A stretch of 52,373 nt of DNA from Pseudomonas phage P7869: the sequence record PV173770.1; one strand, given 5' to 3'. Shown piece after piece: positions 2,111 to 23,219 of the stretch. Position 1 is the stretch's first letter. Each line of letters starts with the position of its first letter. The translations under genes were made by a program, and so were the position numbers. The notes beneath the pieces are model-generated. The model was not told the origin of the DNA and did no database searches. It was given only the letters and a program-made list of their open reading frames with translations.

Positions 2111-2271
2111 ACATCGCTACTGGCCTCTACCTCTTCTTCGGCGTCCTTGGTCTGGCTCTTTTCGTAGTTGGAACCTTCGTGCTGCTGGGGCTCGGCTGGG
2201 CGCTCATTTCCGGTGCGGCGTCGGCGTTCGCCATCGCGGCGTTCATTCGCAAGGGGCTAACCAGTGAGTAA
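2107..2271 (+). CDS. Small hydrophobic protein (54 aa, 2 predicted TM helices)
   Basis: The ATG overlaps the TerL stop (ATGA). Sequence MNIATGLYLFFGVLGLALFVVGTF...AFIRKG fills the gap before the portal. Shorter than the ORF-track cutoff. Confidence 0.3.
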   Translation: MNIATGLYLFFGVLGLALFVVGTFVLLGLGWALISGAASAFAIAAFIRKGLTSE

Positions 2272-3568
2272 GAGTCTCGGAAAAGTCCTGAGCAGTGCTA
2301 CGTCTGCGCCCAGGTCCTCATTGTTCGGCTGGGGGGATAAGACCATACGCCTGACAGATGGCGCATTCTGGTCGCAGTTCCTGGGGCGAGAGTCGTCTAG
2401 CGGGAAAAAGGTCACTGTCGACAAGGCAATGAAGCTGTCTGCGGTATGGGCTTGCGTTCGCTTGATCTCTACTTCTGTCGCCGGTCTTCCGCTTGGAGTG
2501 TACGAGCGGAAAGCGGACGGAAGCAGAGTCGATGCTCGGTCGTTCCCGCTCTACGATGTTGTTCACAACAGCCCCAATGACGACATGACGGCCTTCCAGT
2601 TCTGGCAGGCCATGGTCGCATCAATGCTGCTTTGGGGGAACGCATACGCGGAGATTCGCCGCGCTGCGGGCAGACCGGCTGCGTTGGACTTCCTGCTTCC
2701 ATCGAGGATCGACCTGGAGTGTGATGACAACGGTCGGCTGAAGTACTTCTATACGCCAAAGAAGGGGGCTCGTAGAGAGATCGAGCGTACCAACATGCTG
2801 CACATCCCGGCGTTCACGCTGGATGGTCGAATTGGTCTCTCTGCAATCAGGTACGGAGTTGATGTCTTCGGCTCGGTCATGTCGGCGGAGGACGCAGCCA
2901 ACGGCACATTCAAGAACGGACTTCTACCCACGGTCGCCTTCAAGGTTGATCGCATTCTCCAGCCTGCGCAGCGGGAGGAGTTCAGGGAGTATGTGAAGTC
3001 CGTATCGGGCGCGATGAACTCCGGAAGATCCCCGGTTCTGGAGCAGGGGATTACCCCTGAAACCATCGGCATCAATCCGGTCGATGCTCAGTTGCTGGAG
3101 ACGCGAGAGCATGGAGTGATCGAGATTTGCAGATGGTTCGGGGTTCCGCCCTGGATGATTGGTCAGACCGACAAAGGGAGTAACTGGGGGACCGGGCTTG
3201 AACAGCAGATGCTCGCGTTCCTGACATTCTCGATCAGTTCGATCACCAATCAGATTCAGCAGTGCGTCAACAAGCGGCTGCTAACTGCGCCCGAGCGGAT
3301 TCGCTATTACGCCGAGTTTTCCCTTGAGGGATTCCTGAAAGCTGATAGCGCGGGTCGCGCTGCCTGGTACAGCACCATGGCGCAAAACGGATTCATGACT
3401 CGCAATGAAGGTCGCCGGAAAGAGAACCTTCCAGAGCTTCCCGGCGGCGACATCCTGACTGTGCAATCCAACCTTGTCCCCCTCGACCAACTCGGTCAAT
3501 CCAATGAGAGCCAGGCGGTTCGCGCCGCACTCATGAACTGGCTCAGCCAGCCAGAACCACAGGAGTAA
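2264..3568 (+). CDS. Portal protein, HK97 family
   Basis: 434 aa with a GTG start, lying between the terminase and prohead protease genes. HK97-type portal sequence features. Confidence 0.9.
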   Translation: MSKSLGKVLSSATSAPRSSLFGWGDKTIRLTDGAFWSQFLGRESSSGKKVTVDKAMKLSAVWACVRLISTSVAGLPLGVYERKADGSRVDARSFPLYDVVHNSPNDDMTAFQFWQAMVASMLLWGNAYAEIRRAAGRPAALDFLLPSRIDLECDDNGRLKYFYTPKKGARREIERTNMLHIPAFTLDGRIGLSAIRYGVDVFGSVMSAEDAANGTFKNGLLPTVAFKVDRILQPAQREEFREYVKSVSGAMNSGRSPVLEQGITPETIGINPVDAQLLETREHGVIEICRWFGVPPWMIGQTDKGSNWGTGLEQQMLAFLTFSISSITNQIQQCVNKRLLTAPERIRYYAEFSLEGFLKADSAGRAAWYSTMAQNGFMTRNEGRRKENLPELPGGDILTVQSNLVPLDQLGQSNESQAVRAALMNWLSQPEPQE

Positions 3569-3571
3569 CCC

Positions 3572-4462
3572 ATGACTCTGCGAAATCTTCCGGCAGCGCC
3601 GGAGGCTCGCCCGCGCTCGGGCGTCCAGTGCGACCTGGCGCCAAAAGCGCTGGATGCATGGCGTCCTGAGCTTCGCGCCGCGTCCGGCGATAACCCCGAC
3701 ACCACCATCACCATCTACGAGCCCATCGGTTATGACTGGTGGACCGGCGAGGGCGTAACCGCGAAACGCATTGCCGGTGCGCTGCGCGCCATCGGCGGCG
3801 ATGTCGATGTGACCGTGAATATCAATAGTCCGGGCGGCGACGTGTTCGAGGGGCTGGCGATTTACAACCTGCTGCGCGAGCACAAGGGCAAGGTCTCGGT
3901 GAACATCATCGGATTGGCTGCCTCTGCCGCCTCCTTTATCGCCATGGCAGGGGATGAAATCCGCATTGGCCGCGCCGCCTTCCTGATGATCCACAACGCC
4001 TGGCTGATCGCCATGGGCAATCGGAACGACCTGCGTGAGATCGCCGACTGGCTGGAGCCATTCGACATGACGCTGGCTGACATTTACGCGCAGCGCACCG
4101 GCATCGATATCGACGACATCGTGAAGCAGATGGACGCCGAGACCTGGATCGGCGGGCGCGAAGCCGTCGACAAGGGGTGGGCAGATGCCTTCCTGGAATC
4201 CGACGAGATCTCCAGTGCGCCGAGCAACCGCAGTGAAGCCATCTTGGCCAAGCGCCGGATGGATGCCGCTCTGGCTCGCAGCGGCATGCCGCGAAGCCAG
4301 CGCAATGAACTCATCAATGACTTCAAGACCAGCATGCTTGGCGCTGCTGGCGGGGGTGGTGACACCCCGACCGATATGCCTGGCGCTGTCGCTCCTGACC
4401 TCTCCGCTGCACTACGGGCAGCACAAGACATCACTAAATTCCTCCAAGGAGAATCGCAATGA
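3572..4462 (+). CDS. Prohead maturation protease (ClpP/S14-like)
   Basis: Motifs TITIYEPIGYDWW, NSPGGDV and GLAASAASFIAMAG are typical of ClpP-like head proteases. Lies between portal and capsid. Confidence 0.85.
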   Translation: MTLRNLPAAPEARPRSGVQCDLAPKALDAWRPELRAASGDNPDTTITIYEPIGYDWWTGEGVTAKRIAGALRAIGGDVDVTVNINSPGGDVFEGLAIYNLLREHKGKVSVNIIGLAASAASFIAMAGDEIRIGRAAFLMIHNAWLIAMGNRNDLREIADWLEPFDMTLADIYAQRTGIDIDDIVKQMDAETWIGGREAVDKGWADAFLESDEISSAPSNRSEAILAKRRMDAALARSGMPRSQRNELINDFKTSMLGAAGGGGDTPTDMPGAVAPDLSAALRAAQDITKFLQGESQ

Positions 4463-5646
4463 GCGACTTCGAGAAACAAATCGGCGAACTGAACACCAGC
4501 CTCAAGCAGGTCGGCGATCAGATCAAGGCCCAGGCCGAACAGGTCAACACCCAAATCGCCAACTTCGGCGAGATGAACAAGGAAACCCGAGCCAAGGTCG
4601 ACGAACTGCTGACCGCTCAGGGCGAACTGCAAGCACGGCTGAGCGCCGCAGAACAAGCCATGCTGGCCAACGAGAAGCGTGACGGCGGCGAGGAAGCACC
4701 GAAGACCGCCGGCCAAATGGTCGCAGAGAGCCTGAAAGAGCAGGGTGTAACCAGCTCCCTGCGCGGTTCGCATCGCGTATCCATGCCGCGCTCGGCCATC
4801 ACCTCCATCGACAGCTCTGGCGGTGCCCTGGTTGCTCCTGATCGTCGCCCCGGTGTCGTTGCCGCTCCGCAGCGTCGACTGACCATCCGCGACCTGGTTG
4901 CGCCGGGCACCACTGAATCGAACTCCGTCGAGTACGTTCGCGAGACCGGCTTCGTCAACAATGCCGCTCCTGTTTCGGAAGGCACCCAGAAGCCGTACTC
5001 GGACCTGACCTTCGAGCTGGAAAACGCGCCGGTTCGCACCATCGCCCACTTGTTCAAGGCAAGTCGCCAGATCCTGGACGACGCATCGGCCTTGCAGAGC
5101 TACATCGATGCGCGCGCTCGTTACGGCCTGATGTTGGTCGAAGAAGGTCAACTGCTCTACGGAAACGGAACCGGTGCCAATCTGCACGGCATCATTCCGC
5201 AGGCACAGGCCTACGCTCCGCCGAGCGGCGTAGTGGTGACTGCCGAGCAGCGAATCGACCGCATCCGCCTGGCGATCCTTCAGGCGCAACTGGCCGAGTT
5301 CCCGGCCAGCGGTATCGTGCTCAACCCCATCGACTGGGCGCTGATCGAGCTGACCAAGGACGCCGAGAACCGCTACATCATCGGCAGCCCGCAGAACGGC
5401 ACCACTCCGACCCTCTGGCGTCTGCCGGTGGTGGAAACCCAGGCCATCACTCAGGACGAGTTCCTGACCGGAGCTTTCTCGCTCGGCGCCCAGATATTCG
5501 ACCGCATGGACATCGAGGTTTTGGTTTCCACCGAGAACGACAAGGACTTCGAGAACAACATGGTCACTATCCGCGCTGAGGAGCGGCTGGCCTTCGCGGT
5601 CTATCGCCCCGAGGCTTTCGTGACTGGTTCGCTGACCGCCAGCTGA
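4459..5646 (+). CDS. Major capsid protein, HK97 fold, with N-terminal coiled-coil delta/scaffold domain
   Basis: 395 aa. N-terminal coiled coil (QIGELNTSLKQVGDQIKAQAEQV) is followed by an HK97 MCP-like body. Gene order supports the call. Confidence 0.9.
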   Translation: MSDFEKQIGELNTSLKQVGDQIKAQAEQVNTQIANFGEMNKETRAKVDELLTAQGELQARLSAAEQAMLANEKRDGGEEAPKTAGQMVAESLKEQGVTSSLRGSHRVSMPRSAITSIDSSGGALVAPDRRPGVVAAPQRRLTIRDLVAPGTTESNSVEYVRETGFVNNAAPVSEGTQKPYSDLTFELENAPVRTIAHLFKASRQILDDASALQSYIDARARYGLMLVEEGQLLYGNGTGANLHGIIPQAQAYAPPSGVVVTAEQRIDRIRLAILQAQLAEFPASGIVLNPIDWALIELTKDAENRYIIGSPQNGTTPTLWRLPVVETQAITQDEFLTGAFSLGAQIFDRMDIEVLVSTENDKDFENNMVTIRAEERLAFAVYRPEAFVTGSLTAS

Positions 5647-5685
5647 CTGGAAGGGGCCGGTCTCCCGGCCCCCTCTTTCTTTGAG

Positions 5686-5979
5686 GTGATTATGTCTGAC
5701 GTAATGATCAAGCCGGTTCGTTCATACCTGGATGGCGGTCGTGTGAGAAAGGCTGGTGGTGATGCATACCTCGCATCCGAGTACCTGGCTCGCCAGTTGG
5801 TGGCGCGCGGACTTTGCCAGATTGTGGAATCAGAGATCCCAAAGCCTGTGGCTGGCGAGTCGCTGTCTGCCTCGCAAGTGGCCCCAGCCTCACAGCAGAA
5901 GACTGCGAACGAGTCCGAGAGTGGCGGAACTCCTCGCCGCAGAGGGCGGCCATCTGCACGAACACAACGTTCCGACTGA
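5686..5979 (+). CDS. Hypothetical protein (97 aa), C-terminal half disordered/basic
   Basis: ORF directly after the capsid gene. It overlaps the next ORF by 165 nt in another frame (see findings). Confidence 0.3.
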   Translation: MIMSDVMIKPVRSYLDGGRVRKAGGDAYLASEYLARQLVARGLCQIVESEIPKPVAGESLSASQVAPASQQKTANESESGGTPRRRGRPSARTQRSD

Positions 5980-6410
5980 CTCCCTGGGCTGATGCGCTGT
6001 GGGCAATGGATAAAGTCTGGTGGGAGAGATACGCCGCCGAGGCTAAAGCAAACTTCTGCGGTGAGCTTCTGACACTCAGCGCCAATCCCTTCGGCATCAA
6101 AACGGCACGCATTGAGCACTACAGGAACTCAGGCGGCGGCGCAGTTTCTTTGGCCATAGCCAGGGGCGCCAAGCGAATCATCCTTCTCGGCTACGACATG
6201 CAGAAAACTGGCGGGATGTCTCACTGGCATGGTGATCACCCCAGAGGGCTGGGTAGTGCAGGGAAGATATCCGAGTGGCCGGTAGAGTTCGAAAACCTGA
6301 AGCGCAAGAACCCTGGGATAGAAATCATCAATTGCACACGCGAAACGGCGCTTACCTGTTTCGCGCGTAGACCGCTGGAGGACGCGCTGAATGAGCCTGA
6401 TCCCGCTTGA
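5814..6410 (+). CDS. DUF115/MptE (Maf)-like putative glycosyltransferase
   Basis: Motif VAVCLASGPSL (the GPSL signature) and a C-terminal GGGAVSLAIARGAKRIILLGYDM match the MptE/Maf-like family pattern. The only in-frame start is TTG 5814, or else ATG 6006. Confidence 0.45.
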   Translation: MPDCGIRDPKACGWRVAVCLASGPSLTAEDCERVREWRNSSPQRAAICTNTTFRLTPWADALWAMDKVWWERYAAEAKANFCGELLTLSANPFGIKTARIEHYRNSGGGAVSLAIARGAKRIILLGYDMQKTGGMSHWHGDHPRGLGSAGKISEWPVEFENLKRKNPGIEIINCTRETALTCFARRPLEDALNEPDPA

Positions 6411-6711
6411 TACGGCAAAGTCCTTTCTTGATGTGATCCACGATTGGGATGACGCCAAGCTCCAGTTGCTGCTGGATGGAGCGGAGGACGAGGCCTGCCA
6501 GTTCATGTGGCGCCAGTCCCTTGATGGCCTTTGCAACTGCGAAGAGAGCAGTGAGGCTGTCAGTAGCGAACCGGGACTTCCGCCTAGCGTGGTCATCGGA
6601 GTGCTTCTTTTGCTTCAGGCCAGCTATCAGGCTGCTCCCGAAGAAATCGCAACGCTGCGCAAGGCGGCCGAAGTGAAGCTGATGCCGTACAGATGCGGCT
6701 TGGGGGTTTGA
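6391..6711 (+). CDS. Head-tail connector protein (gp6-like)
   Basis: 106 aa. LDTAKSFLDVIHDWDDAKLQLLLDGAEDEACQF is typical of gp6-like DNA-packaging/connector proteins. Confidence 0.7.
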   Translation: MSLIPLDTAKSFLDVIHDWDDAKLQLLLDGAEDEACQFMWRQSLDGLCNCEESSEAVSSEPGLPPSVVIGVLLLLQASYQAAPEEIATLRKAAEVKLMPYRCGLGV

Positions 6712-7068
6712 ATGCTGGCCTACCGTATGCGCCACCGCATTCAGTTTCAGCGGCAGGTCCACACACAAGACCCTGACACGGGAGAAGAGACGACGACCTG
6801 GGAGACGGTTCTGTTCTCCGGTCACGCTGACCTGCCCGCAGAGGTTCTGACTGGACCGGGGCGCGAGTTGATCGCCGCAGACGCTACGCAGGCGGAGACC
6901 ACTGCCAGGATCAACTGTCGGTGGTTCCCCGTTGAGCGGTTGGAACTGTACACCTGGCGGGTCATCTGGGATGGCAGGGTCTACAACATCACCAGCGCAG
7001 AGACCGATGTCACCGCTCGCCGTGAATGGAGACTGCGCTGTTCTGATGGATTGACGGACGGTCGGTAA
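6712..7068 (+). CDS. Head closure / head-tail adaptor (SPP1 gp16 / gp7-like)
   Basis: 118 aa. MRHRIQFQRQV...W..V.W...VY pattern of head-tail joining proteins. Confidence 0.7.
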   Translation: MLAYRMRHRIQFQRQVHTQDPDTGEETTTWETVLFSGHADLPAEVLTGPGRELIAADATQAETTARINCRWFPVERLELYTWRVIWDGRVYNITSAETDVTARREWRLRCSDGLTDGR

Positions 7069-7186
7069 CTATTTGGCCCGAAAGGGCGCTCAACACGCAG
7101 CTAGGCCCGTACAGCCGAACGGCGGATGTCGCTCATCCGTCCGCCCCGCTGCGTTTCTATTCGCCTGATGAGCGAGGTAACGACAG

Positions 7187-7759
7187 ATGCGCGACAGTAA
7201 TGTTTTCGAGATTAAGAGATTGGCTGATGGGCTGGACGCTGCTTTGAAGGCGACCGATGCCTATGAGTACCTAATAGATCGGATAGCCGCTGTCTTCCTG
7301 AAATGCAGCCTCGTCCGAACTGTCGGCCTATTCGATGAGATGGCAGTCCTCGAAGCGATCAACGAGATCGATCTTTGCATCAAAGCCTCTGGCGAAGACT
7401 CGCGCGTCGCGGGCTTGTGTCGCTACGCTTTGGAGCTATCTGGCGTAGGGGAAAACGAATTGATGATCGACGGTGACGGGAAGGTGAAGCGCCGCATGGT
7501 TTACTTCATTCGGAACAGTCGTGGATCGATCAAGATCGGTTCGAGTATGAATGTCGAGGATCGCCTACATCAGCTTGAAACTGGAGCTGGCGAACGCCTC
7601 GAACTTATAGCCTCTGTACCAGGATCCTTCGGTGCGGAGCGAGAGCTACACGCGCGGTTTACTGGTTTGCGCGAGCATGGCGAATGGTTCAGCCCTGGGG
7701 AGGAATTGCTGGAGTACATCAACCAGCTTCAATTGACCTTCGGCCTCGACGCCGCCTAA
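7187..7759 (+). CDS. GIY-YIG (T5orf172-type) domain protein with unknown N-terminal domain
   Basis: C-terminal VYFIRNSRGSIKIGSS...ERLHQLETGAGERLELIA...AERELHARF...EWF is a GIY-YIG/T5orf172 signature. It has its own upstream intergenic region and a downstream terminator. Confidence 0.6.
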   Translation: MRDSNVFEIKRLADGLDAALKATDAYEYLIDRIAAVFLKCSLVRTVGLFDEMAVLEAINEIDLCIKASGEDSRVAGLCRYALELSGVGENELMIDGDGKVKRRMVYFIRNSRGSIKIGSSMNVEDRLHQLETGAGERLELIASVPGSFGAERELHARFTGLREHGEWFSPGEELLEYINQLQLTFGLDAA

Positions 7760-7779
7760 CCCAATCGCGACGAACGAAA

Positions 7780-7800
7780 GCCCGCCTTGAGCGGGCTTCG
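7780..7800 (+). terminator. Intrinsic terminator-like hairpin (GCCCGC-cttga-GCGGGC) plus U-rich tail
   Basis: Stem-loop seen directly after the 7759 stop. It is part of the repeated junction module (see findings). Confidence 0.55.
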
Positions 7801-7820
7801 TCGTTTCTGGAGATCATGAA

Positions 7821-8183
7821 ATGACCGACCAAGCAATCGAGCAAGAAATCCAGGCCAAGGGCCTGACCGCTCCCCGCATCACGCCTGCTGACGTTGAGGC
7901 GAACATCGTGGGTGAATACTTCTTCACTGCCGAGGATGGGGTGAAGACCGCTTTCAACCAGCAGGATGAGCTGACGCGTTTGACGGGATACCACGCCGAG
8001 CTGGGATTGCTGACCTTCTGCGTACTGGTACTGAAGAACGGCTTCACCGTCACCGGCGAGTCGGCCTGTGCGAGCCCGGCGAACTTCGACGCGGAGATCG
8101 GCCGGAAAATCTCCCGGCAGAATGCCGTCTCCAAAATCTGGCCACTGATGGGCTACGAACTGCGTAGCAGACTGGCTGACTGA
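7821..8183 (+). CDS. Gp49-like phage protein (Phage_gp49_66-type)
   Basis: LTFCVLVLKNGFTVTGESACASPANFDAEIGRKISRQNAVSKIWPLMGYELR is the hallmark of this family. Confidence 0.5.
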   Translation: MTDQAIEQEIQAKGLTAPRITPADVEANIVGEYFFTAEDGVKTAFNQQDELTRLTGYHAELGLLTFCVLVLKNGFTVTGESACASPANFDAEIGRKISRQNAVSKIWPLMGYELRSRLAD

Positions 8184-8186
8184 TCC

Positions 8187-9020
8187 ATGCTGATCCGTGG
8201 AATGCTCGGCCTCGGCGACTCGATCTATTCCAGGGCATTCCTGAGGAAGTACCCAGGCGCATTCCTCGAAACACCCTGGCCAGAGCTTTACCTCGACCTC
8301 GACGTGAAGTGCGTTCGCCCGGCGACGCAGTTGAGAACCCAGGCCAAGAACATCCAGCGCGAGCACGACTGGCACCGCCCTGTCGGCGGCGGCCAAATGC
8401 GCATCGCCTACGGCCGAGACCCGATCATTCAGGGGCTGCGCAAGGCGTTCCGTTGCGAACCCGGCGAGTTCGACCTGCCGGACTTTGGTCCTCCGCCAGT
8501 CGATGGGCGCTATGTGCTGGTTCGCCCAGCCACGGTTCGCGCTGAGTGGCGCGCAGACACGCGCAACCCACTGCCCGAGTACATCGCCAGCGCTGCCTCA
8601 GAGATGCGCCGCAGGGGCTGGAAAGTGGTTTCCGTGGCAGACCTGGAGCCGGGCAAGGAATGGGCGCTTGATCCACTCCCGCCGGCAGACATCCAGTTCC
8701 ACAAGGGCGAACTGCCGGTTGAACAACTGCTGGCGCTGCTCCAGCACGCAGATGCCGTGATTGGCGGCATCGGCTGGATCGTTCCGGCCGCCATAGCCGC
8801 CAAGGTGCCGGCCTGGATCATCTGCGGCGGCCAGGGCGGCTACAACTCGCCGGAACACATCACCGACAAGTGCATGGACCTGTCCCGCATCACCTTCGCG
8901 GTCCCCGACAGGTTCTGCCGCTGCACCCTCAAAGAACACAACTGCGACAAGAGAATCACCGACTACGAAAGAAAATTTTCGAAGTGGGCTGACGCACTTC
9001 AAATCGAGATGACACCATGA
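8187..9020 (+). CDS. GT9-like (heptosyltransferase-fold) glycosyltransferase
   Basis: N-terminal GLGDSIYSRAFLRKYPGA resembles the GT9 GDxxxxxPxxxxL motif. C-terminal LLALLQHADAVIGGIGWIVPAAIAAKVPAWIICGG resembles the GT9 acceptor/ADP-heptose binding region. Confidence 0.5.
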   Translation: MLIRGMLGLGDSIYSRAFLRKYPGAFLETPWPELYLDLDVKCVRPATQLRTQAKNIQREHDWHRPVGGGQMRIAYGRDPIIQGLRKAFRCEPGEFDLPDFGPPPVDGRYVLVRPATVRAEWRADTRNPLPEYIASAASEMRRRGWKVVSVADLEPGKEWALDPLPPADIQFHKGELPVEQLLALLQHADAVIGGIGWIVPAAIAAKVPAWIICGGQGGYNSPEHITDKCMDLSRITFAVPDRFCRCTLKEHNCDKRITDYERKFSKWADALQIEMTP

Positions 9021-9202
9021 CCACGAAATACGCTCTCGGCTCCGATGAGGGATTGATCCCGACTGTTGACCTCGAATCGCTCTCTTCCTATTTGGTTGAC
9101 GGTCGGGAGTATGTTGACCTTTGCCTGACAGAAGCAGGTTACGAACGACTCAAACAGCACTTCTTCCGCTTGTTCGAAAGTGAGCAGGAGGGCCAGGCAT
9201 GA
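9017..9202 (+). CDS. Hypothetical protein (61 aa)
   Basis: Translationally coupled between the GT9-like and methyltransferase genes. Confidence 0.3.
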   Translation: MTTKYALGSDEGLIPTVDLESLSSYLVDGREYVDLCLTEAGYERLKQHFFRLFESEQEGQA

Positions 9203-9816
9203 CGCACGCTTTGCCGCCTGTGTTGACCGACTGCCTGCTCTGGTCTGAAGAGCTTGGCATGGGCTTCCACCCGCGCCCTCCGATGGACTATAGCGGGCCG
9301 TATTTCGAGAAGTATCAGGTGCTTGACGCTACCCCGATGGGCGCCGCGCTGACCCAGGCCCGTATTGATCTGGTGCGCCGTCACTTTACCGGCCAAGTGG
9401 TAGACATCGGTATCGGCGGAGGCCGTTTCGTCACAGAGTCCGGCGCGATGGGCTTTGACGTGAATCAGGAAGCGGTGGCTTGGCTGAGGGCGCAGGAGCG
9501 CTACTACGACCCGTACCAGCACCACGCAGAGGCCGTGACCTGCTGGGACAGCCTGGAGCACATTCCCGAGCCGGAGAAGCTGCTCGACCATGTTGGCGAG
9601 TGGCTGTTCGTGTCGATGCCGATTTATAAGGATCAGGCTGACTGCCTGTCCTCCAAGCACTACAAGCCGGGTGAGCATATCTGGTACCACACGATGCACG
9701 GTTTGATCGGATGGTGCGAGCGTCAAGGTTTCGAATGTGTCGAGCTAAACGACCAGGAGTCGAAACTTGGCCGAGAAGGCATCACCAGCTTTGCGTTTCG
9801 GAGAGTCCATGGCTGA
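9199..9816 (+). CDS. Class I SAM-dependent methyltransferase (non-DNA type)
   Basis: Motif I VVDIGIGGGRF and post-I motif CWDSLEHIPEPEKLL, then LFVSMP. No DNA-methyltransferase motifs are visible. Confidence 0.65.
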   Translation: MTHALPPVLTDCLLWSEELGMGFHPRPPMDYSGPYFEKYQVLDATPMGAALTQARIDLVRRHFTGQVVDIGIGGGRFVTESGAMGFDVNQEAVAWLRAQERYYDPYQHHAEAVTCWDSLEHIPEPEKLLDHVGEWLFVSMPIYKDQADCLSSKHYKPGEHIWYHTMHGLIGWCERQGFECVELNDQESKLGREGITSFAFRRVHG

Positions 9817-10291
9817 TACCGTCGAATTCAGCATGACTGGGATGGATGAGGTCATCGAGAAGCTGAACCAGATGTCGCCGATGGTGAAGAAGAAAGGCGG
9901 CCGTCGTGCCCTGGCAAGAGCAGCCTCAATAGTCCGCGCTCAGGCGCGTCAGAATGCGAGAGGGATCGACGATAAAACCACTCGCGAGATGATCGCCAAG
10001 AACATTGCGATGCAGTGGATGACTAGGATGAATCGCCAGACGGGCGACCTTGGTTATCGAATCGGAGTCCGCGGCGGCGCTCGGGATATGAGCGAGTACG
10101 GAGAGCTCAGCGGTGAGGGTAGGAACAATCCAGGGGGCGATACCTGGTACTGGCGGCTAGTTGAGTTTGGCACAGAGAGAACTCGGGCGAAGCCTTTCAT
10201 GCGGCCAGCGCTTGAGAGCACCGTTCAGGAGGCAACAAATGCGTTTGCCATCGAACTCGAAAAGCAGATCGACAAAATTCTGGAGGGGTAA
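9809..10291 (+). CDS. HK97 gp10-like tail-component/head-tail joining protein
   Basis: WYWRLVEFGTERTRAKPFMRPA matches the HK97-gp10 family. Start refined to ATG 9809, which has a GGAGAG RBS. Confidence 0.65.
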   Translation: MADTVEFSMTGMDEVIEKLNQMSPMVKKKGGRRALARAASIVRAQARQNARGIDDKTTREMIAKNIAMQWMTRMNRQTGDLGYRIGVRGGARDMSEYGELSGEGRNNPGGDTWYWRLVEFGTERTRAKPFMRPALESTVQEATNAFAIELEKQIDKILEG

Positions 10292-10656
10292 TGTACCCGC
10301 CAATCTTTAAGGTCTGCTCAAGTAGTCCCGCTGTTACCGCGATTCTCGGTGCGTCCCCGCTGAGGATGTATCAGTTTGGCCTGGCCCCCCAGCTCGTCGT
10401 CAAGCCGTACGCAACATGGCAGACCATATCTGGATCGCCGGAGAACTACCTATGGGGGCGCCCTGACGCCGATGGGTTCACCCTCCAGGTGGACATTTTC
10501 TCAGCCACCGCTGCGGAAGCCAGAGATGCAGCAAAGGCCATCAGGGATGCAATTGAGCTTTCAGCCTATGTAGTCCGCTGGGGAGGGGAATCTGTTGATC
10601 CTGATACCAAGACCTACCGAGTCAGCTTTGACATCGACTGGATAGTCCAGCGATAG
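10291..10656 (+). CDS. Tail completion protein (HK97 gp11 / DUF3168-like)
   Basis: 121 aa in the conserved position before the major tail gene. Pattern MYPPIF...VVKPYATWQ...LQVDIFS fits. Confidence 0.6.
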   Translation: MYPPIFKVCSSSPAVTAILGASPLRMYQFGLAPQLVVKPYATWQTISGSPENYLWGRPDADGFTLQVDIFSATAAEARDAAKAIRDAIELSAYVVRWGGESVDPDTKTYRVSFDIDWIVQR

Positions 10657-10696: not shown

Positions 10697-10729
10697 GTGC
10701 TTCAAGAAACCCGCCACAGGAGAAACACA

Positions 10730-11251
10730 ATGGCAATTTTGGCTCAAGGAACTCAGATCTATGCGCTGGTTCCGTCCAGAGATTCTAGCGGCAGCCCGAC
10801 TGGTAACTACGAAGTCATCGAGGTCGAGTGCGCTACCGCCTTCAACCCCGGCGGCAACCCTGCCGACCAGATCGAAACCACATGCCTTAGCGAAACTGTT
10901 CGGCGCTACCTGCGCGGCCTGCGCACGCCGGGGCAGGCTTCGCTGACTCTCAACGCCGACCCGCGCAACAGTTCCCATATCCGCCTCTACCAACTGTCCG
11001 AGTCTGACGATCAGATCGACCAGGACATCGCTTTCGCGGTTGGCTGGTCTGACGGGATCGGCATTGCACCCACCGAGGCCCAGGACAGCAACGGCGACTG
11101 GGACTTTGTTCTGCCGCCGACGCGCACTTGGTTCGTCTTCCGCGGCTATGTGAGCGATTTCCCGTTCGATTTCGCAGCCAACGCTGTTGTCACTTCCACT
11201 GCAACCATTCAGCGCTCCGGCGGTTCCGCCTGGATTCGCAAATCCGCGTAA
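10730..11251 (+). CDS. Major tail (tube) protein
   Basis: 173 aa. AGGAG RBS 8 nt upstream of ATG 10730. Position between tail-completion and G/T chaperone genes supports the call. Confidence 0.7.
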
Positions 11252-11898: not shown

Positions 11899-11909
11899 TC
11901 CTTCGTTTT

Positions 11910-11932
11910 GCCCGGAGCGTTCCGGGCTTTTT
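11910..11932 (+). terminator. Terminator-like hairpin (GCCCGGA-gcgt-TCCGGGC + TTTTTC) between T and tape-measure genes
   Basis: Seen in sequence. Its location inside an otherwise contiguous tail operon is unusual and suggests attenuation. Confidence 0.45.
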
Positions 11933-11946
11933 CATTGGAGCCCGCA

Positions 11947-14397
11947 ATGGCATCACGCAGCCTGGGGACGCTTACGCTCGATCTCATCGCCAAGGTTGGC
12001 GGCTTCGTGGCCGGCATGGAGAAGGCCGAGCGCACAGCAAAGAAAGGTGCTAAGGAAATTGGCAGCGCCGCCGATGCCGCATCGCTGGCCTGGGGGAAGC
12101 TTGGTGAGGTCGCTGCGGGCGCCCTCTCAGGAATCACTGTTGGAGCAGTTTTCGGTGCAGTGATCAGAAACACCAAGCAGATGGAGAAAGAGCAGGCGCA
12201 ACTCGAAGCCGTTCTGCGCTCGACGGGAGAGTCTGCTGGTTTCAGCCGAGAACAGCTGAACGAAATGGCCTCGTCCATGGAGAGGACTAGCACTGTATCT
12301 GCCGGAGAAATCAACCAGGCACAGACCAACCTGCTGGCCTTCACTGGCATTGTTGGAGAGCAGTTTCCTCGCGCGCTTCAATCCGCCATTGACATGGCGG
12401 CGCGCACTGGAACTACTGTAACGTCCGCTGCCGAGACAATAGGTCGTGCCCTTGATGTTCCATCCAAGGGTCTTACCGCTCTGAGCAAACAAGGGTTTCG
12501 GTTTACAGAGGAACAGAAGAAAGCTGCTGAACAGCTTGAGGCAACTGGACGCACTGCTGAAGCTCAGGGAATTATTCTCAAAGCCCTTGAGGAGTCATAT
12601 GGGGGGGCTGCTGCGGCTTCGCGCGATACCTTTGGCGGGGCCCTCATGGCTCTGCAAAACACCATTGACGGACTGTTGACAGGAAGCGAAGGAAGTCTGG
12701 ACGGTGCCAAGGTTGCTATCGATGATCTCAATAGGGCATTGAGCGACCCCGCTACAGCGGAATCCGTCTCCAAACTTTTCGACCTGCTCGCGCAGGGAGC
12801 GTCAACCGTAGTTGATTCCTTGCCGTTCCTGATTGATGCGGGGGATGGCGTGGTGCGGGTATTCAGTATCGCGGCCGATGCCCTGGTAGGCGTTTTTGCC
12901 ACTGCGACCATGCACGCGCAGGGGCTGGCCGCCTCAATGTTCGAAACGCTTTCGCTGCTACCAGACGCCCTTGGCGGGGATGATTTCGCAGCTAGAGCTG
13001 CTGAATACCGCGCAAGTGCTGCCATAAATCTGGGAGTAGCCAAAGAGGCTGCTGACGGCATTCGAGACGCGCTTGAGCGACCTCTTGCTGGATCCGCTAT
13101 AGCAGATGCGGCCAGCAAGACGAAGGAGCTGAATAAGGCGAAGAAAGAGAGCAAGGATCTCGATGATGCAGCGATAAGCGCTGCTGCCAAAGTGGCTGGC
13201 GCAAGGAAAGAGGCCGAAGCTGCCGCAAAGCGTCAGCAGCAGGCGGTCGCCAGTCTTATTTCATCCATGCAACTGGAGGCTGCCACTGTTGGCATGACCG
13301 CCAACGAGCAGAAGCTTTACAGACTTCAATTGGACGGAGCAACTGCCTCTCAGTTAGCGCAGGCAAAGGCAGCCATTGAGACTGTCGAGTCCTTCAAGCA
13401 ACAACAGAATGCCCAGGAAGATTACAGGAAGCTGGTCCAAGACCTCAGGACTGACGAAGAGCGCCTGCTCGATACAACGAAAGAGCGCCTTGCTGTTCTT
13501 GACGCAATGCAGGGTCTGAGCGACGAGGAAAGAAATCGTGTCGCTTCGCGGATCGTGTCTGACTCGTTCTCTGCTCCGCCTTCTTTCGGTGGCGCAGACG
13601 CTGTAGTCGCTGGGCCTCAAGGTGAACTCGACAAGATCGACAAGGCAGAGGAAGAACTTGAGAAGTGGTATCAAACCCAACTCGATCTTCTGAATGCCAA
13701 TCGAGAGGCAAAAGCTGAATTGACTGCTCAATGGGATGAGCAGGAATTGAAGCTAAAGCAAGAACACGAAGATGCCCTAGCCGCTATTGAGCGGTCCCGT
13801 CAGCAGGTGACGTTGAGCGCCAATGAGCAGTTCTTTGGAAATCTGAGCGGCTTGGCCAAGAGCTTCTTCGGAGAGCAATCCGGCCTCTACAAGGCAGCAT
13901 TCGTTGCCGAGAAGTCATATGCGATAGCGAAGACCCTGCTGAACGCTCCAAAGACTGCGTCTGATGCCTATGCGGCCATGGCGGGAATTCCCGTCATTGG
14001 CCCAGCGCTTGGTATTGCAGCAGCGGCTGCTGCGGTTACAGCTCAGTTGGCACAGGTAGCAGCAGTGAAGAACGTCAATCTCTCTGGTCAGGCCCATGAC
14101 GGCATTATGTCCGTCCCTGAGGATGGGACCTGGAACCTCAAGAAGGGCGAGAGGGTAACGACGGCAGAGACAAGTGCAAAGTTAGACCGGACGCTTGATG
14201 ACGTACGGCGTAATCAGGCAAGCGCAGGCGCTCCAACCATAAACCTGATCGAGGACCGAAGCCGCGCGGGGCAGGTCAATACTCGCCGCCAGGATGACCA
14301 GTACATCATCGATGTTGTAGTGGCCGATCTATTCGGTGATGGCCGTTCGTCGAAAGCTATCGGAAGTTCGTTCGGTATTCGTAGGAGCGGCACATGA
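11947..14397 (+). CDS. Tail tape measure protein
   Basis: About 816 aa, Ala/Gln-rich and coiled-coil. Follows the G/G-T chaperones. Start refined to ATG 11947 (GGAG RBS) downstream of the hairpin. Confidence 0.85.
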   Translation: MASRSLGTLTLDLIAKVGGFVAGMEKAERTAKKGAKEIGSAADAASLAWGKLGEVAAGALSGITVGAVFGAVIRNTKQMEKEQAQLEAVLRSTGESAGFSREQLNEMASSMERTSTVSAGEINQAQTNLLAFTGIVGEQFPRALQSAIDMAARTGTTVTSAAETIGRALDVPSKGLTALSKQGFRFTEEQKKAAEQLEATGRTAEAQGIILKALEESYGGAAAASRDTFGGALMALQNTIDGLLTGSEGSLDGAKVAIDDLNRALSDPATAESVSKLFDLLAQGASTVVDSLPFLIDAGDGVVRVFSIAADALVGVFATATMHAQGLAASMFETLSLLPDALGGDDFAARAAEYRASAAINLGVAKEAADGIRDALERPLAGSAIADAASKTKELNKAKKESKDLDDAAISAAAKVAGARKEAEAAAKRQQQAVASLISSMQLEAATVGMTANEQKLYRLQLDGATASQLAQAKAAIETVESFKQQQNAQEDYRKLVQDLRTDEERLLDTTKERLAVLDAMQGLSDEERNRVASRIVSDSFSAPPSFGGADAVVAGPQGELDKIDKAEEELEKWYQTQLDLLNANREAKAELTAQWDEQELKLKQEHEDALAAIERSRQQVTLSANEQFFGNLSGLAKSFFGEQSGLYKAAFVAEKSYAIAKTLLNAPKTASDAYAAMAGIPVIGPALGIAAAAAAVTAQLAQVAAVKNVNLSGQAHDGIMSVPEDGTWNLKKGERVTTAETSAKLDRTLDDVRRNQASAGAPTINLIEDRSRAGQVNTRRQDDQYIIDVVVADLFGDGRSSKAIGSSFGIRRSGT

Positions 14398-18517: not shown

Positions 18518-20575
18518 ATGACGACCTACGCCACCGGTAACCCGCTGGGCTCAAAAGACCCGCGTGATTTGTACGACAACGCCGAGAACTTCGACGCGGC
18601 GATGAATGACCGTACGAATGTTGCGTGGAGAGACAGGTTCGGTGTTTCGCGGAAAACCTGGTTTGGCATCGAGGATCAGGTAAACACCTCCCTCGCCCGA
18701 TCTGGGTTCGAGTTGCCACCGTTGCAGTATGTCGATGGTTCCCCGTTGACCGTAGATCGCTCGACCCAGATCATCGAGCGGGGTGGCAATCTTTATAGTG
18801 TAAAACTTCCATCTTCGTTCCCTGTCGTTCTTTCTGGCAATTGGTCTGAAGATGAAGTTTTACTTGTTGTACGTGGCGATCAGTCTCTTCGCCAAGAAAT
18901 AACTAGCACTTCTCCAAGTGAAGGTTCTTCCATCATTGGTAATTCGACCGTCTCTGTTTCTTCTGTCGCTGATATAAAAAATCAGACAAAGAGAGCGGAT
19001 CTCAAACTATCTTTGTCCTCCTATCATCCTCTTGGAAAATCAGGCGGCGGGACCTTCATTTGGAGTCCATCAACTCCAAAGTCTAATCATGATGGAGGAA
19101 CAATTTTTAGTCCAACCGTTCCATGGGATGGTTCTCAGTCAACTCTTTCCGACTACCTAGATGGAGAAGGCGAAACTGACCCTTCTGGATCTGGCTGTTG
19201 GTTAAGGATTTTCGATGAAGTTAAGTTGGAATATTTTGGCGGACTAATAAGTGAGACTATAGATTCTTCAGCATCTTTTTTGGCTGCAATTAAATATTGT
19301 TTGTCAAACAATAAAGAGCTTAATCTTCCAGATGGTGTTGTTCGCCTTAATTCTCCTGCTGTAATTAATGGATCTACCACTCTTTTCTCTTCTGTTAAGA
19401 TTCGAGGAACCTTCAAGACGAGTGGAGTATCTGCTGGGTATGTGGTAAGCCGAGTAGGAAGCCTTATCTATACTGACGGTAACAGCGCTCTAGATATCTC
19501 GTTCAATGACTTCAGGAATGAAAATTTCGATATCCGTGGCGTGGCATTTGTAGATACATCATTCTATCCAGCCGGAACCCCTGTAAATCCAAATCCTGCA
19601 ATCGTTATCAGGAAGGGTAATCCTGACGCAAGTAGTAACAGATACATAACAGGCAACGTTCTTGAGGATGTTGCTTTCGTTAGCTATCAAGACGCTGTGA
19701 AAACTATTGGGGTTGCAACAGGGTTGCCCACCTATAACTACGTTGGTCCAACTTCGTTGAATCGTGTGTATTTCTACAAGTGCGGCACCGCTATGCATCT
19801 ACAGGATTGCACGTACAATCACCTGTTCCTGAACGAGTGCCTACTCTTCGATCTGTCGTCGCAGTCTATTTTCCTGACCAAGACGGTTAGCGGAACTGGC
19901 GGGAACGTAGATGTAACGTTCAGCAACTGTGTATTCGAATCAATTTGGGGGATTATGAATACTGCTAATGGATTGACGTCTTCCACGAAGCGCAACACCG
20001 CAGTTTTCAACTCGTGCAATAGAGAGTTCTGCGGCCTTTATGGACCGACTGGTGGCGGCGGAAACTTCGCAGGAAGCCCGCTTGGGTATATTGGTCATAC
20101 TGATGTAATGATCAATGGCAATTGGGAGAGAGGCCAGGCATTTGGTGAAACTGCCTTGCCAGCGATTGATTCTGGCGCTGTTATTTTTGCGAGCAGGTAC
20201 GTTGATGTTCTCATGAATGGCGGTCAAGTTGGGTCGCCAGAATATGTCAACGTCGTTGACTTTAGCGGAACGATTCCAGCATCTGGCAGCCTGACAAAAA
20301 CTTTCAATGTGAGCGGTTCGTTTGTGTTGAATGCTGACGTCGCCTATGACGACGGGTTTGGCGGGCACCAGAATGTCGTTGCGTATGGCAACCCAACTGG
20401 CTCAAAAGCGAGGGATGTGACAGGGACAATCATCTCTGCTGGCTTGACTGCAACCTACGGCGATGGCCCATCTGGCGCGGCGTTCACGGTAACGTTCAAC
20501 AACGGTACCGCGTCGCCGATCAATGTGAAGATCCGAGTCACGAACAAAGCCGGCCTGATCGTTACTGTTTCATGA
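18518..20575 (+). CDS. Tail fiber / tailspike with beta-helix (pectate-lyase-like) repeats
   Basis: Conserved GC-rich N-terminal anchor [26 protein letters not shown]. The central body is AT-rich and shows beta-helix-like repeats ([11 protein letters not shown]..., [16 protein letters not shown]). Confidence 0.75.
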
Positions 20576-20839: not shown

Positions 20840-21274
20840 ATGCGTACTTCCCAACGAGGCATAGACCTCATCAAATCGTTCGAGGGCCTGCGCTTGTCCG
20901 CCTATCAGGACTCGGTGGGTGTCTGGACCATCGGCTATGGCACTACGCGGGGCGTGACCCGCTACATGACGATCACCGTTGAGCAGGCCGAGCGGATGTT
21001 GGCCAATGACATTCAGCGCTTCGAGCCTGAACTGGACAAGCTGGTGAAAGTGCCACTGAACCAGAACCAGTGGGATGCCCTGATGAGCTTCGTCTATAAC
21101 CTGGGCGCGGCAAATCTTGCGTCGTCCACTCTGCTCAAGCTGCTGAACAAGGGTGACTACCAGGGAGCAGCGGACCAGTTCCCTCGCTGGGTGAATGCGG
21201 GTGGTAAGCGCTTGGAAGGGCTGGTAAAGCGCCGAGCGGCGGAACGTGTCCTGTTCCTGGAGCCGCTGTCGTGA
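20840..21274 (+). CDS. Endolysin, GH24 (T4-lysozyme-like) muramidase, no signal/SAR sequence
   Basis: SFEGLRLSAYQDSVGVWTIGYGTT contains the catalytic E/D/T triad context of GH24. Confidence 0.9.
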   Translation: MRTSQRGIDLIKSFEGLRLSAYQDSVGVWTIGYGTTRGVTRYMTITVEQAERMLANDIQRFEPELDKLVKVPLNQNQWDALMSFVYNLGAANLASSTLLKLLNKGDYQGAADQFPRWVNAGGKRLEGLVKRRAAERVLFLEPLS

Positions 21275-21924: not shown

Positions 21925-22195
21925 TGACGGAAACGTGAAGCGCGGAAATGGAAAACGTGAAAAGGAATTTCACGATTGGCACAGTTTAAGTGATTGCGGT
22001 CGGCGTAAACTGTTGTAATATAAGCGCTTCTGAGGTGCGAGACAGGATTTAGGTTCCAGCGCCGCAAGGCGTGAGAGTTCGAGTCTCTCCGTCCGCACCA
22101 CCTTCTAAATCAAGTGTTTACAAGCTTCAGCGGCCCTCCTTGTAGATGCGCTGGATTATCAGCGTGAACAGAACGTGAAATGCGACTTTCACGGA
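21925..22195. other. attP region with arm-type repeats (ACGTGAA / TTTCACG) flanking the core
   Basis: ACGTGAA at 21933, 21955, 22163 (GCGTGAAC) and 22175, and its complement TTTCACG at 21968 and 22187. These bracket a tRNA 3' fragment immediately upstream of int. Confidence 0.6.
22045..22100 (+). other. 3' portion of a type-II tRNA (probably tRNA-Leu, anticodon UAG) = attP core
   Basis: Anticodon arm remnant, long variable arm (CGCC-gcaa-GGCG), T-arm GAGAG-TTCGAGT-CTCTC, acceptor CGTCCGC, discriminator A, CCA. The 5' half is absent. Confidence 0.6.
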
Positions 22196-23219
22196 CTTGA
22201 TCAAGCACCCCAACTGCATCCATTACCCTGGCCGGCGCAAGATGGGCATATCGCTCAGTCATCGCGACTGTAGAGTGTCCAAGCAGATCGCGAACGTCTG
22301 CCAGCGGAACTCCTGCGCTAACCAGCCAGGCCGCACAGGTATGGCGCAGGTCGTGAATCGTAAAGTCTACGATCTTCGCTGCCTGACATGCCTGCTTGAA
22401 ACCTGCCGAAAGAGAGACCACTCGATCACCGTTGGCGCGCGCAAAGACCCAGGGGCATTCTGGGCTTGTCTCGGACCTGAATGCCATTCGTCGCTTTAGT
22501 GCTGCCATCGCCCCTTCGTTGATCGGAATGCTCCGGCGCTTTCCTGCCTTCGTGTGGCTAGCCTCCAGATAGATCAGGCGGTTGGCAAAATCCACTCTGC
22601 GCCACTCCAGACCAAGCATTTCCTCCCGCCGGCATCCGGTGTTCACCGCTAGGCGGATGAAGTCCTCAAGCATCGGGCCAAACTTCTGCCCGCGCGCGGC
22701 TCGGCACAGGCCCTCGACCTCTGCCCTGGTCAGCCAACGATCACGCCCCTCGGCCTCGCGCATCTTCCGTCCCTTTACAGGATTCGGGAGACCCCACTCC
22801 AGTTCGGTGTTGCAATGGTTGATAGCCGCGGATAATGCCGCGAGTTCGCGGTTGATGGTTGCCGGGGATGCGCCGGCGTCCAATCTGTGCGTTCCGTAGC
22901 CCCGGATGTCCTGCCCCCCTAGATCGTTGATCACACGTCCGGCAAAATACTCGCGCAGCGGCTTTATGCGGTGCACGGTCGTTTCGTAGCTGCGCTGATG
23001 CTGGCGAGCGTGTTGCAGATACGGAATGATCACCTCCTCAAAGGTCCTGGGCGGATTCACGCCCATTTCCTTTTCCTTCCACGCTTTCGCGCGTTCCTGT
23101 TGCTCTAGTGCTTTCGCCGCCGAGTAGTCGGCAGTTCCAGAAGAGCGTCTAACAAGCTTTCCTGTTGCTGATTTGAAAGAGATCCACCAGTAGGCGGAGT
23201 CGTTTCTCTTGTACGGCAT
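22110..23219 (-). CDS. int: Tyrosine integrase
   Basis: 369 aa with R...HDLRHT...LGHSTVAMTERYAH catalytic motifs. Adjacent to attP. Confidence 0.9.
   Translation of the reverse strand: MPYKRNDSAYWWISFKSATGKLVRRSSGTADYSAAKALEQQERAKAWKEKEMGVNPPRTFEEVIIPYLQHARQHQRSYETTVHRIKPLREYFAGRVINDLGGQDIRGYGTHRLDAGASPATINRELAALSAAINHCNTELEWGLPNPVKGRKMREAEGRDRWLTRAEVEGLCRAARGQKFGPMLEDFIRLAVNTGCRREEMLGLEWRRVDFANRLIYLEASHTKAGKRRSIPINEGAMAALKRRMAFRSETSPECPWVFARANGDRVVSLSAGFKQACQAAKIVDFTIHDLRHTCAAWLVSAGVPLADVRDLLGHSTVAMTERYAHLAPARVMDAVGVLDQVRESRISRSVHADNPAHLQGGPLKLVNT

Follow-up and report, generated by a model that had tools for sequence, protein, structure and literature searches.

To our knowledge, mycobacteriophages are the only phages whose virions have been shown to be glycosylated by phage-encoded enzymes, a modification that shields the particles from antibodies. 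Mycobacteriophages such as Che8, Corndog and Myrna are reported to decorate their capsids and tail tubes with glycosyltransferases of their own, which are non-essential and are carried in cassettes common to unrelated clusters (Freeman et al. 2023, as cited in PMC12363180 and PMC11256854). Maf enzymes O-glycosylate Ser and Thr residues of cytoplasmic protein, and one of them accepts cytidine monophosphate–3-deoxy-D-manno-octulosonate (CMP-Kdo) in E. coli (PMC11339370); TibC heptosylates protein Ser with adenosine diphosphate (ADP)-heptose (PMC4358343). A locus that can be compared with all three is found in Pseudomonas phage P7869 (PV173770.1; the window, that is, the whole stretch of 52,373 nucleotides analysed), a temperate, D3-like (Detrevirus) siphophage of Pseudomonas aeruginosa. 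Three genes on its + strand, which encode a Maf/DUF115-like protein (5814-6410), a GT9-like glycosyltransferase (8187-9020) and a class I S-adenosylmethionine (SAM)-dependent methyltransferase (9199-9816), form a single conserved, mobile cassette embedded in the late operon, and the Maf-like enzyme is probably made, at least in part, by -1 frameshifting from a small upstream gene.

The locus resembles that of the mycobacteriophages in its phage-encoded glycosyltransferases and in the spread of the genes among unrelated phages, and differs in the hosts, which are actinobacteria there and Gram-negative bacteria here, and in that glycosylation is demonstrated there and proposed here. The accessible part of the mycobacteriophage account places the glycosylation genes of Maravista near the genome end and notes no frameshift, whereas the genes described here sit in the head-neck block. 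Individual genes of the cassette are already labelled piecemeal in GenBank (“alpha-2,3-sialyltransferase”, “GT9”, “methyltransferase”, “PmgO”). In the accessible literature, no functional study of the cassette, of glycosylation in D3 or PAJU2, of the role of the P1 homolog PmgO or of phage Maf-like enzymes was found, nor any mention of the frameshift. Relative to the known cases of phage glycosylation, what would be new is the set of enzyme families, the host group and the recoding.

A Conserved and Mobile Three-Gene Cassette

Across ~240 related loci, the three genes co-occur far above chance. These loci comprise a close set of 80 from IMG/VR, collected with the GT9-like family and carrying a near-identical cassette; a divergent set of a second 80 IMG/VR loci, 35-42% identical to the copy in a Klebsiella jumbo phage; and a third set of 88, made up of 83 newly fetched loci (mostly via the DUF115 family) and five phage records fetched earlier. 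The methyltransferase gene directly follows the GT9-like gene in every locus of the close set (80/80), with a DUF115 homolog wherever upstream sequence exists; in the divergent set, 75 of 80 loci have the order DUF115, GT9-like, methyltransferase on one strand, with the genes mostly abutting. The full triad is present in 68 loci of the third set, DUF115 without the other two in 13, DUF115 with the GT9-like gene in six, and the GT9-like and methyltransferase genes in one. In at least five loci (L091, L102, L228, L229 and L241) DUF115 and a full-length GT9-like domain lie in one stop-to-stop frame, an apparent fusion that an overlapping pair of genes with the GT9 frame open upstream would mimic.

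The cassette travels between phages that share little else. It is kept in PAJU2-like phages, whose terminases are 22-27% identical and whose capsid proteins show no match, with the DUF115 gene between the neck gene Hc1 and the GT9-like gene. It is contiguous in Enterobacter phage Mulvp2 and, as gp005-gp003, in the Klebsiella jumbo phage Eowyn, where the surrounding region has no annotated structural genes; in a T4-like Synechococcus phage, the GT9-like and methyltransferase genes adjoin neck genes. The cassette takes one of two positions across loci: the interval that separates head-closure from gp10-like genes, or a site just ahead of HNH-TerS-TerL. Closer to the window, 51 Pseudomonas phage records match positions 5600-10300 by megablast, among them D3, PMG1, PP9W2 and vB_PaeS-D14C, at 86-94% identity. 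The families are large, with ~1,300 GT9-like and ~900 DUF115 protein clusters, almost all of which lack a source name or are called “hypothetical protein”; a scan of genome contigs returned five loci, all in prophage-like relatives from Pseudomonas, and says little about distribution. In the close set, the cassette was not found to track particular capsid or tail-tube variants: the same cassette accompanies tail tubes that are 98% and 68% identical as well as unrelated capsids.

Every open reading frame (ORF) named in the earlier note was recovered at its coordinates on the + strand. That note had divided these genes into two separate units, a Maf-like gene and, farther downstream, a single moron cluster; the co-occurrence data replace both with one cassette, in which the GT9-like and methyltransferase genes belong with DUF115 and the other members of the supposed cluster (T5orf172, gp49-like and 61-residue genes) are variable insertions. 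In the window, the neck genes Ad1 (6391-6711, +) and Hc1 (6712-7068, +) stand between the DUF115 gene and the GT9-like/methyltransferase region.

What happens to DUF115 when its usual partners are missing? Where the GT9-like and methyltransferase genes are absent, it usually neighbors other sugar enzymes: glycosyltransferases of PHROG 1962 (L219, L221, L251 and L253), a GT2-GT9 fusion (L234), or Methyltransf_23 or Methyltransf_21 genes (L240 and L251); second DUF115 copies are present in L221 and L240. The glycosyltransferase toolkit varies from locus to locus, and DUF115 is what stays constant in it. Because the enzyme content of the capsid-Ad1 and Hc1-gp10 slots is modular and variable, the locus looks like one of glycan assembly and not like a fixed metabolic pathway.

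Two further arrangements were seen among these loci. In L225, L226, L236 and L247, all from IMG/VR, DUF115 and a weaker-scoring GT9-like domain share one stop-to-stop frame of ~500 codons with no methyltransferase gene downstream; because this sub-family lacks that gene, the cassette has at least one reduced form. In L234, the interval between the DUF115 gene and Ad1 (8069-9478 of that locus) encodes a 457-residue protein (470 codons as submitted) with a Laminin_G_3/concanavalin-A-like lectin domain, together with two small genes; such proteins, encoded beside glycosylation genes, could decorate the head or neck and bind carbohydrate.

Enzymes of the Cassette

The 198-residue product of 5814-6410, a putative CMP-sugar glycosyltransferase, has the MptE-like fold of the Maf central domain (Rossmann-like and related to sialyltransferases), and its best structural match is Maf. 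Protein family evidence points the same way: PHROG 4603, named “alpha-2,3-sialyltransferase”, matches at 1e-71; PF01973 is reached at E ≤ 0.01 by 22 of 44 diverse homologs (best 1e-6); and some database homologs carry a precomputed PF01973 hit. The sequence A21-S-G-P-S25, a nucleotide-binding motif of the G-x-G-P-S-L type, is invariant in the 44 homologs. The family profile aligns to the sialyltransferase Cst-II through its GNGPSL and GID motifs, weakly and without statistical significance (E ~1.4). What the phage protein shares with the Maf flagellin glycosyltransferases (PF01973, MAF_flag10/MptE-like; structure 5mu5) is the central domain: it has ~180 residues against the 632 of the matched chain and none of the N- or C-terminal Maf domains. 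The three-domain Maf architecture with a flagellin acceptor is accordingly absent from this protein of 198 residues (239 as a fusion), and the phage has no flagellar context. It further differs from Maf in being phage-borne, in scoring below the Pfam threshold, in carrying a family-specific HWHGDHP motif, and in its tie, by frameshift or fusion, to a 50-residue domain not known in Maf; its activity is putative.

A homolog is found outside this group of phages in P1 PmgO and its P7 counterpart HdmB (“putative morphogenetic function”; 33% identity, E 1e-23). Unlike the window gene, P1 pmgO (L083, 4944-5606) has its own ATG, no GT9-like or methyltransferase partner and no orf6.5-like upstream domain; the P1 record annotates a late promoter, LPpmgL, for its operon. 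P1 PmgN was considered as an orf6.5 homolog and rejected, as its translation has no visible similarity. PmgO is non-essential and dispensable for plaque formation, as judged by CRISPR interference and deletion (PMC10695390), and this dispensability fits an accessory modifier. In PAJU2, the DUF115 homolog ORF010 is labelled “structural protein” in GenBank AP009624, an annotation only and the sole indirect pointer to a glycan on virion proteins.

The 277-residue product of 8187-9020 (PHROG 6804, of unknown function) was assigned to the GT-B fold and to GT9 by structure. Its model (predicted local distance difference test score, pLDDT, 91.6) matches best 3tov (16.9), TibC (16.7), WaaF (16.5) and WaaC (15.2), as against 9.0 for the best non-GT9 glycosyltransferase of the GT-B fold. 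Profile comparison agrees: the GT2-GT9 fusion of L234, a related phage, occupies the same genomic slot and scores against PF01075 at E 3e-11, and hhalign aligns it to the GT9-like family alignment with 93.3% probability (E 2.8e-7, 241 columns), over a span that takes in the N-terminal GxGD and the C-terminal Cys/His motif. The conserved features are an N-terminal GLGD, an RPxTxRxEW motif and a C-terminal metal-knuckle motif, CxCx4HxC. G8-L-G-D11, whose Asp is the candidate for the catalytic residue of the GT9 GD motif, is invariant and aligns with the ALGD of the PF01075-positive protein in the profile alignment. The CxCx4HxC motif (8916-8945; C244, C246, H251 and C253) is invariant even in jumbo-phage and cyanophage homologs of 31-47% identity, and a C...HxC counterpart is present in the PF01075-positive phage GT9.

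Two known groups of GT9 enzymes can be set beside it. WaaC and WaaF have the same GT9-type fold in the model comparison; the window enzyme is shorter and its N-terminal acceptor domain is reduced. TibC likewise has a Cys-rich, metal-type knuckle near the C-terminus, with a different pattern: an iron finger of four Cys residues (C339/342/358/370) in place of CxCx4HxC. Judging by its sequence, the latter is probably a structural metal site, reminiscent of the TibC iron finger and not identical to it. Also unlike TibC, the window enzyme has no β-barrel, as the N-terminus of the model opens with alternating strands and helices and leaves no room for a barrel of ~100 residues, and TIGR04414, the profile of the TibC/AAH autotransporter heptosyltransferases, gives 13.5 bits against a cut-off of 200 bits.

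The third enzyme (PHROG 6564) is the one whose family is plain from its profile. Methyltransf_23 (PF13489) matches it at 40.9 bits against a cut-off of 27 bits (E 2e-10), motif I (D69-I-G-I-G-G-G75) and a UbiG-like L-E-H-I-P-E-P are conserved, and the nearest PDB sequences are UbiG O-methyltransferases. Methyltransf_23 is the sole family found: DNA-methylase families give no match, and no (D/N)PP(Y/F) motif is visible in the family alignment. The call of a non-DNA, SAM-dependent methyltransferase in the earlier note is borne out. Its two glycosyltransferase assignments fared differently: the Pfam searches that it proposed as a check failed for PF01973 and PF01075 at curated thresholds, and NCBIfam scans confirmed neither. 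Only structure and profile-profile comparison support the two assignments, and they do so for fold and superfamily. PDB sequence searches with all three enzymes gave nothing meaningful; matches to pentatricopeptide and forkhead proteins were discarded as spurious.

A Likely Frameshift Architecture Upstream of the Maf-Like Enzyme

The earlier note had the Maf-like gene follow the capsid gene immediately. Between them lies a 95-residue ORF (5692-5979, +; PHROG 7993), the counterpart of D3 orf6.5, whose end runs into the DUF115 gene. Neither it nor the programmed frameshift in which it probably takes part figured in the earlier picture. A conserved N-terminal domain of ~45 residues is followed by a Ser/Ala/Pro-rich tail encoded in the overlap, which makes up the last 166 nt of the small ORF. 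The DUF115 frame is -1 relative to the small ORF, and among the fetched loci the same relation holds for all 88 of the distinct small ORFs homologous to it. The tail was considered as a glycosylation acceptor and rejected, its conservation being fully accounted for by the overlapping ASGPSL codons.

If the enzyme lies in the -1 frame, how is it translated? In the frame of the small ORF, the 0-frame of the proposed event, lies a slippery heptamer, C CCA AAG (5838-5844, +), of the efficient XXA AAG class. A -1 slip at this site would join residues 1-51 of the small ORF to the DUF115 frame, with a predicted product of 239 residues and 26.4 kDa (5692-5844 joined to 5844-6410; junction ...ESEIPK followed by ACGWRVAVCLASGPSL...). 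Every D3-like locus, and eight loci of greater divergence (several of them 55-60% identical), have the heptamer exactly 36 nt ahead of the invariant ASGPS codons, and every junction locus inspected has C-CCN at the matching place, at a distance of 36 or 39 nt. The residue before the conserved Pro is variable (D, V, I, A, T, R, N, F, H or L); its codon always ends in C.

Between the upstream stop and ASGPS, the DUF115 frame holds no ATG, GTG or TTG in 27 of 63 distinct junctions; all 27 belong to the 32 junctions that remain once the near-identical D3-type group is set aside. In several loci this frame opens only 36-54 nt upstream, and in L235 and L236 a TGA directly precedes CCC. Four database homologs of 235-245 residues (P0144, P0146, P0150 and P0154) carry the N-domain and the DUF115 domain in a single frame and align end to end with the predicted window product, with no gap at the junction; in the two loci fetched (P0144 and P0150), the fusion gene comes directly after the capsid gene. 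It is very probable that the wider family requires recoding to produce the enzyme. The GenBank record of D3 starts orf7 at an internal ATG, which would remove the conserved ASGPSL motif; because of this loss, public annotations of the DUF115 gene are probably wrong.

The arrangement recalls the G/GT tail chaperone of phage lambda. Both have an X XXY YYZ heptamer at a conserved position; two products with a common N-terminus arise there and would arise here, and recoding of this type shares with the present case an overlapping -1 ORF that in many relatives has no start of its own and a long form that is encoded in frame in some. Unlike G/GT, a small head-proximal domain would be joined here to an enzyme and not one chaperone domain to another; many relatives keep only C-CCN, which would need slippage of a single tRNA(Pro); a TTG in the window may serve as an independent start; and the case is known from sequence alone.

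For the window itself, -1 frameshifting probably takes place, a judgement made with distinctly less assurance than that on the family. Two observations count against it. The window (TTG at 5814) and its close D3-like relatives have a TTG or GTG 60 nt upstream of ASGPS with a Shine-Dalgarno-like GGTGG, so that frameshifting is not strictly needed in the window. Downstream of the slippery site, a possible stimulatory hairpin (5847-5892, +; GGCUGG at 5850-5855 pairs with CCAGCC at 5884-5889) has a minimum free energy of -26 kcal/mol and a z-score of only -0.49, and is no more stable than shuffled sequence. Across 33 junction sequences, a related helix in which GRW codons face ASGP codons has 79% of its cells paired, with four doubly changed pairs and none of 500 shuffles reaching the observed value; both of its arms are protein-coding, and RNAalifold did not recover a consensus helix from the junction sequences.

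Expression and Proposed Function

The cassette is embedded in the late operon, as the earlier note had it: the start and stop codons of the enzyme genes overlap with those of neck and tail genes, and no sigma-70 promoter-like site was found in 5500-10400. A terminator-like GC hairpin with a T-run follows the major capsid gene (5653-5672, +; eight GC pairs, then CTCTTTCTTT) and, from its sequence, is likely to attenuate expression of the enzyme genes behind it; in the PMG1 record, a terminator is annotated within the matched region. No transmembrane segment is predicted from sequence in any cassette protein. Because membrane segments are lacking, the genes are packed and overlapping, an attenuator appears to precede them and promoter-like sites are missing, the enzymes would be made late, in the cytoplasm, and below the level of the capsid protein.

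What would three such enzymes do in the cytoplasm late in infection? Of the two kinds of target put forward in the earlier note, virion proteins and the host envelope, the genomic context favors the former, as proteins that are made late and assemble in the cytoplasm. The reading tentatively favored here, with doubt and support nearly in balance, is late O-glycosylation of virion proteins with a methylated glycan of the heptose/ulosonic-acid type. Pseudomonas and enterobacterial hosts make ADP-heptose and CMP-Kdo as nucleotide sugars for the inner core of their lipopolysaccharide (LPS). From such nucleotide sugars of the LPS inner core, the GT9-like and Maf-like enzymes may each add one sugar, the candidate donors being ADP-heptose for the former and CMP-Kdo or another CMP-ulosonic acid for the latter, and the methyltransferase would O-methylate the glycan. 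By analogy with the mycobacteriophages, the acceptor would most likely be Ser or Thr on virion proteins as they assemble in the cytoplasm. Slippage on C CCA AAG would yield at least some of the Maf-like enzyme as a -1 fusion to the first 51 residues of the small ORF, and this N-domain may direct the enzyme to its substrate.

Several findings weigh against virion glycosylation. In the Pfam scan, the Maf-like protein of the window reaches 15.3 bits with PF01973 (E 0.017) against a gathering threshold of 34.6 bits, and the GT9-like protein has no Pfam family at E ≤ 0.1, PF01075 included, and no PDB sequence match even with a profile. The acceptor cannot be read from sequence, and the accessible literature yielded no direct evidence of glycans on D3-like virions. 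The cassette also occurs in siphophages, jumbo myophages and a T4-like cyanophage, whose structural proteins are unrelated, and the Eowyn copy lies outside any obvious structural block; because of this spread, a target common to the hosts would fit as well.

Such a target is the host envelope. From the cytoplasmic side of the inner membrane, the GT9-like and Maf-like enzymes could act on lipid A-core or on some other lipid-linked or cell-surface acceptor, and the changed LPS would block superinfection or the adsorption of progeny to debris. The LPS core heptosyltransferases WaaC and WaaF are among the closest solved structures, the presumed donors are LPS-core precursors, and movement among phages with unrelated virion proteins, together with the Eowyn location, points in the same direction; D3-type phages, moreover, use the LPS O-antigen and convert it. 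Known envelope-converting genes, however, are morons expressed from the prophage and located near the attachment site, whereas the cassette lies in a late operon, is translationally coupled to neck and tail genes and has no promoter of its own. Its proteins have no membrane segments, and the 277-residue enzyme is much shorter than WaaC and WaaF, with a reduced N-terminal acceptor domain; the homologous GT9-like/methyltransferase pair adjoins neck genes in the Synechococcus cyanophage, and frameshift or fusion couples the Maf-like enzyme to a small gene that stands, in every case, behind the capsid gene. Modification of the envelope is, on this evidence, unlikely.

Other roles are less likely still. 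DUF115 could be a pyrophosphokinase that, with the GT-B enzyme and the O-methyltransferase, makes or destroys a small metabolite or signalling nucleotide, for instance in anti-defence, and MptE and thiamine pyrophosphokinase do figure among its structural neighbors; yet the best of these is the Maf glycosyltransferase, ASGPSL aligns with the GNGPSL CMP-binding motif of Cst-II (in an alignment that is not significant), and relatives pair DUF115 with different bona fide glycosyltransferases (GT2, PHROG 1962 and GT9), all of which makes such a pathway improbable. That the phage nucleic acid is glycosylated and methylated against restriction is more doubtful again, given a methyltransferase that is UbiG-like and matches no DNA-methylase family, GT9 structures that score far above DNA glycosyltransferases, and the absence of base-hydroxymethylating or other precursor genes beside the cassette in the loci examined. 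It is scarcely credible, finally, that the locus consists of two unrelated insertions that merely share an operon: in the window, Ad1, Hc1 and the slot for variable morons do lie between them, yet elsewhere the genes co-occur almost universally, in a fixed order, are contiguous in most phages and appear as DUF115-GT9 single-frame fusions.

Variable Genes and Genomic Setting

The T5orf172, gp49-like and 61-residue genes are independent, variable morons outside the cassette. The first (7187-7759, +) encodes a T5orf172/MUG113 (GIY-YIG-related) C-terminal domain and is followed by a terminator-like hairpin of its own (7778-7798); it occupies this slot in three of the 80 close loci, and a fourth has a copy elsewhere. 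The Phage_gp49_66-family gene (7821-8183, +; 2.5e-31) is missing from more than half of the close relatives; in BK061477 the corresponding gene, 81% identical, is called “Anti-CRISPR protein”, a record label only. Both lie in the slot from Hc1 to the GT9-like gene (7068-8186), a moron hot spot in which D3 has a KilA-N gene. The acidic 61-residue ORF (9017-9202, +; 7 kDa, isoelectric point 4.3) interrupts what is, in most relatives, a direct overlap of the GT9-like gene with the methyltransferase gene. It has no match in Pfam, PHROGs or NCBIfam, occurs in seven of the 80 close loci (L003-L006, L019, L029 and L074) and is probably an independent small moron; in size and charge it resembles small anti-defence proteins.

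Around these genes, the structural operon of the window runs on the + strand from the large terminase (419-2110) through the portal (2264-3568), protease (3572-4462) and HK97-type major capsid protein (4459-5646) to the HK97 gp10-like gene (9767-10291), the tail terminator, the tail tube (10697-11251) and the tape measure (11908-14397). Farther downstream are a phage lysozyme gene (20840-21274) and, on the - strand, an integrase gene (22110-23219). At the end of the tail module, just ahead of the lysozyme gene, an ORF of 685 residues (18518-20575) has no Pfam match and a G+C content of 0.44, against ~0.58; it is probably a horizontally exchanged receptor-binding protein.

Implications

At its broadest, the virion reading would have many Gram-negative tailed phages coat their virions with an O-methylated glycan of the heptose/Kdo type, made from host ADP-heptose and CMP-Kdo by a portable cassette, with the Maf-like enzyme delivered in HK97-like siphophages as a -1 frameshift fusion to a capsid-proximal domain. 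So wide a statement is unlikely to hold; if true, the recoding event would be one that had escaped notice, and virion glycosylation would have its first known system beyond the actinobacteriophages. The conserved overlap and slippery site are a candidate for programmed frameshifting outside the tail-chaperone paradigm. The cassette enzymes could serve glycoengineering with donors that are ubiquitous in E. coli, and assigning a function to the cassette would bring annotation to a sizeable portion of phage dark matter, P1 pmgO included. If the cassette glycosylates virions, phage-encoded virion glycosylation would extend to phages of Pseudomonas, Klebsiella, Enterobacter and other hosts, with a bearing on the pharmacokinetics of phage therapy, on serology and on receptor interactions.

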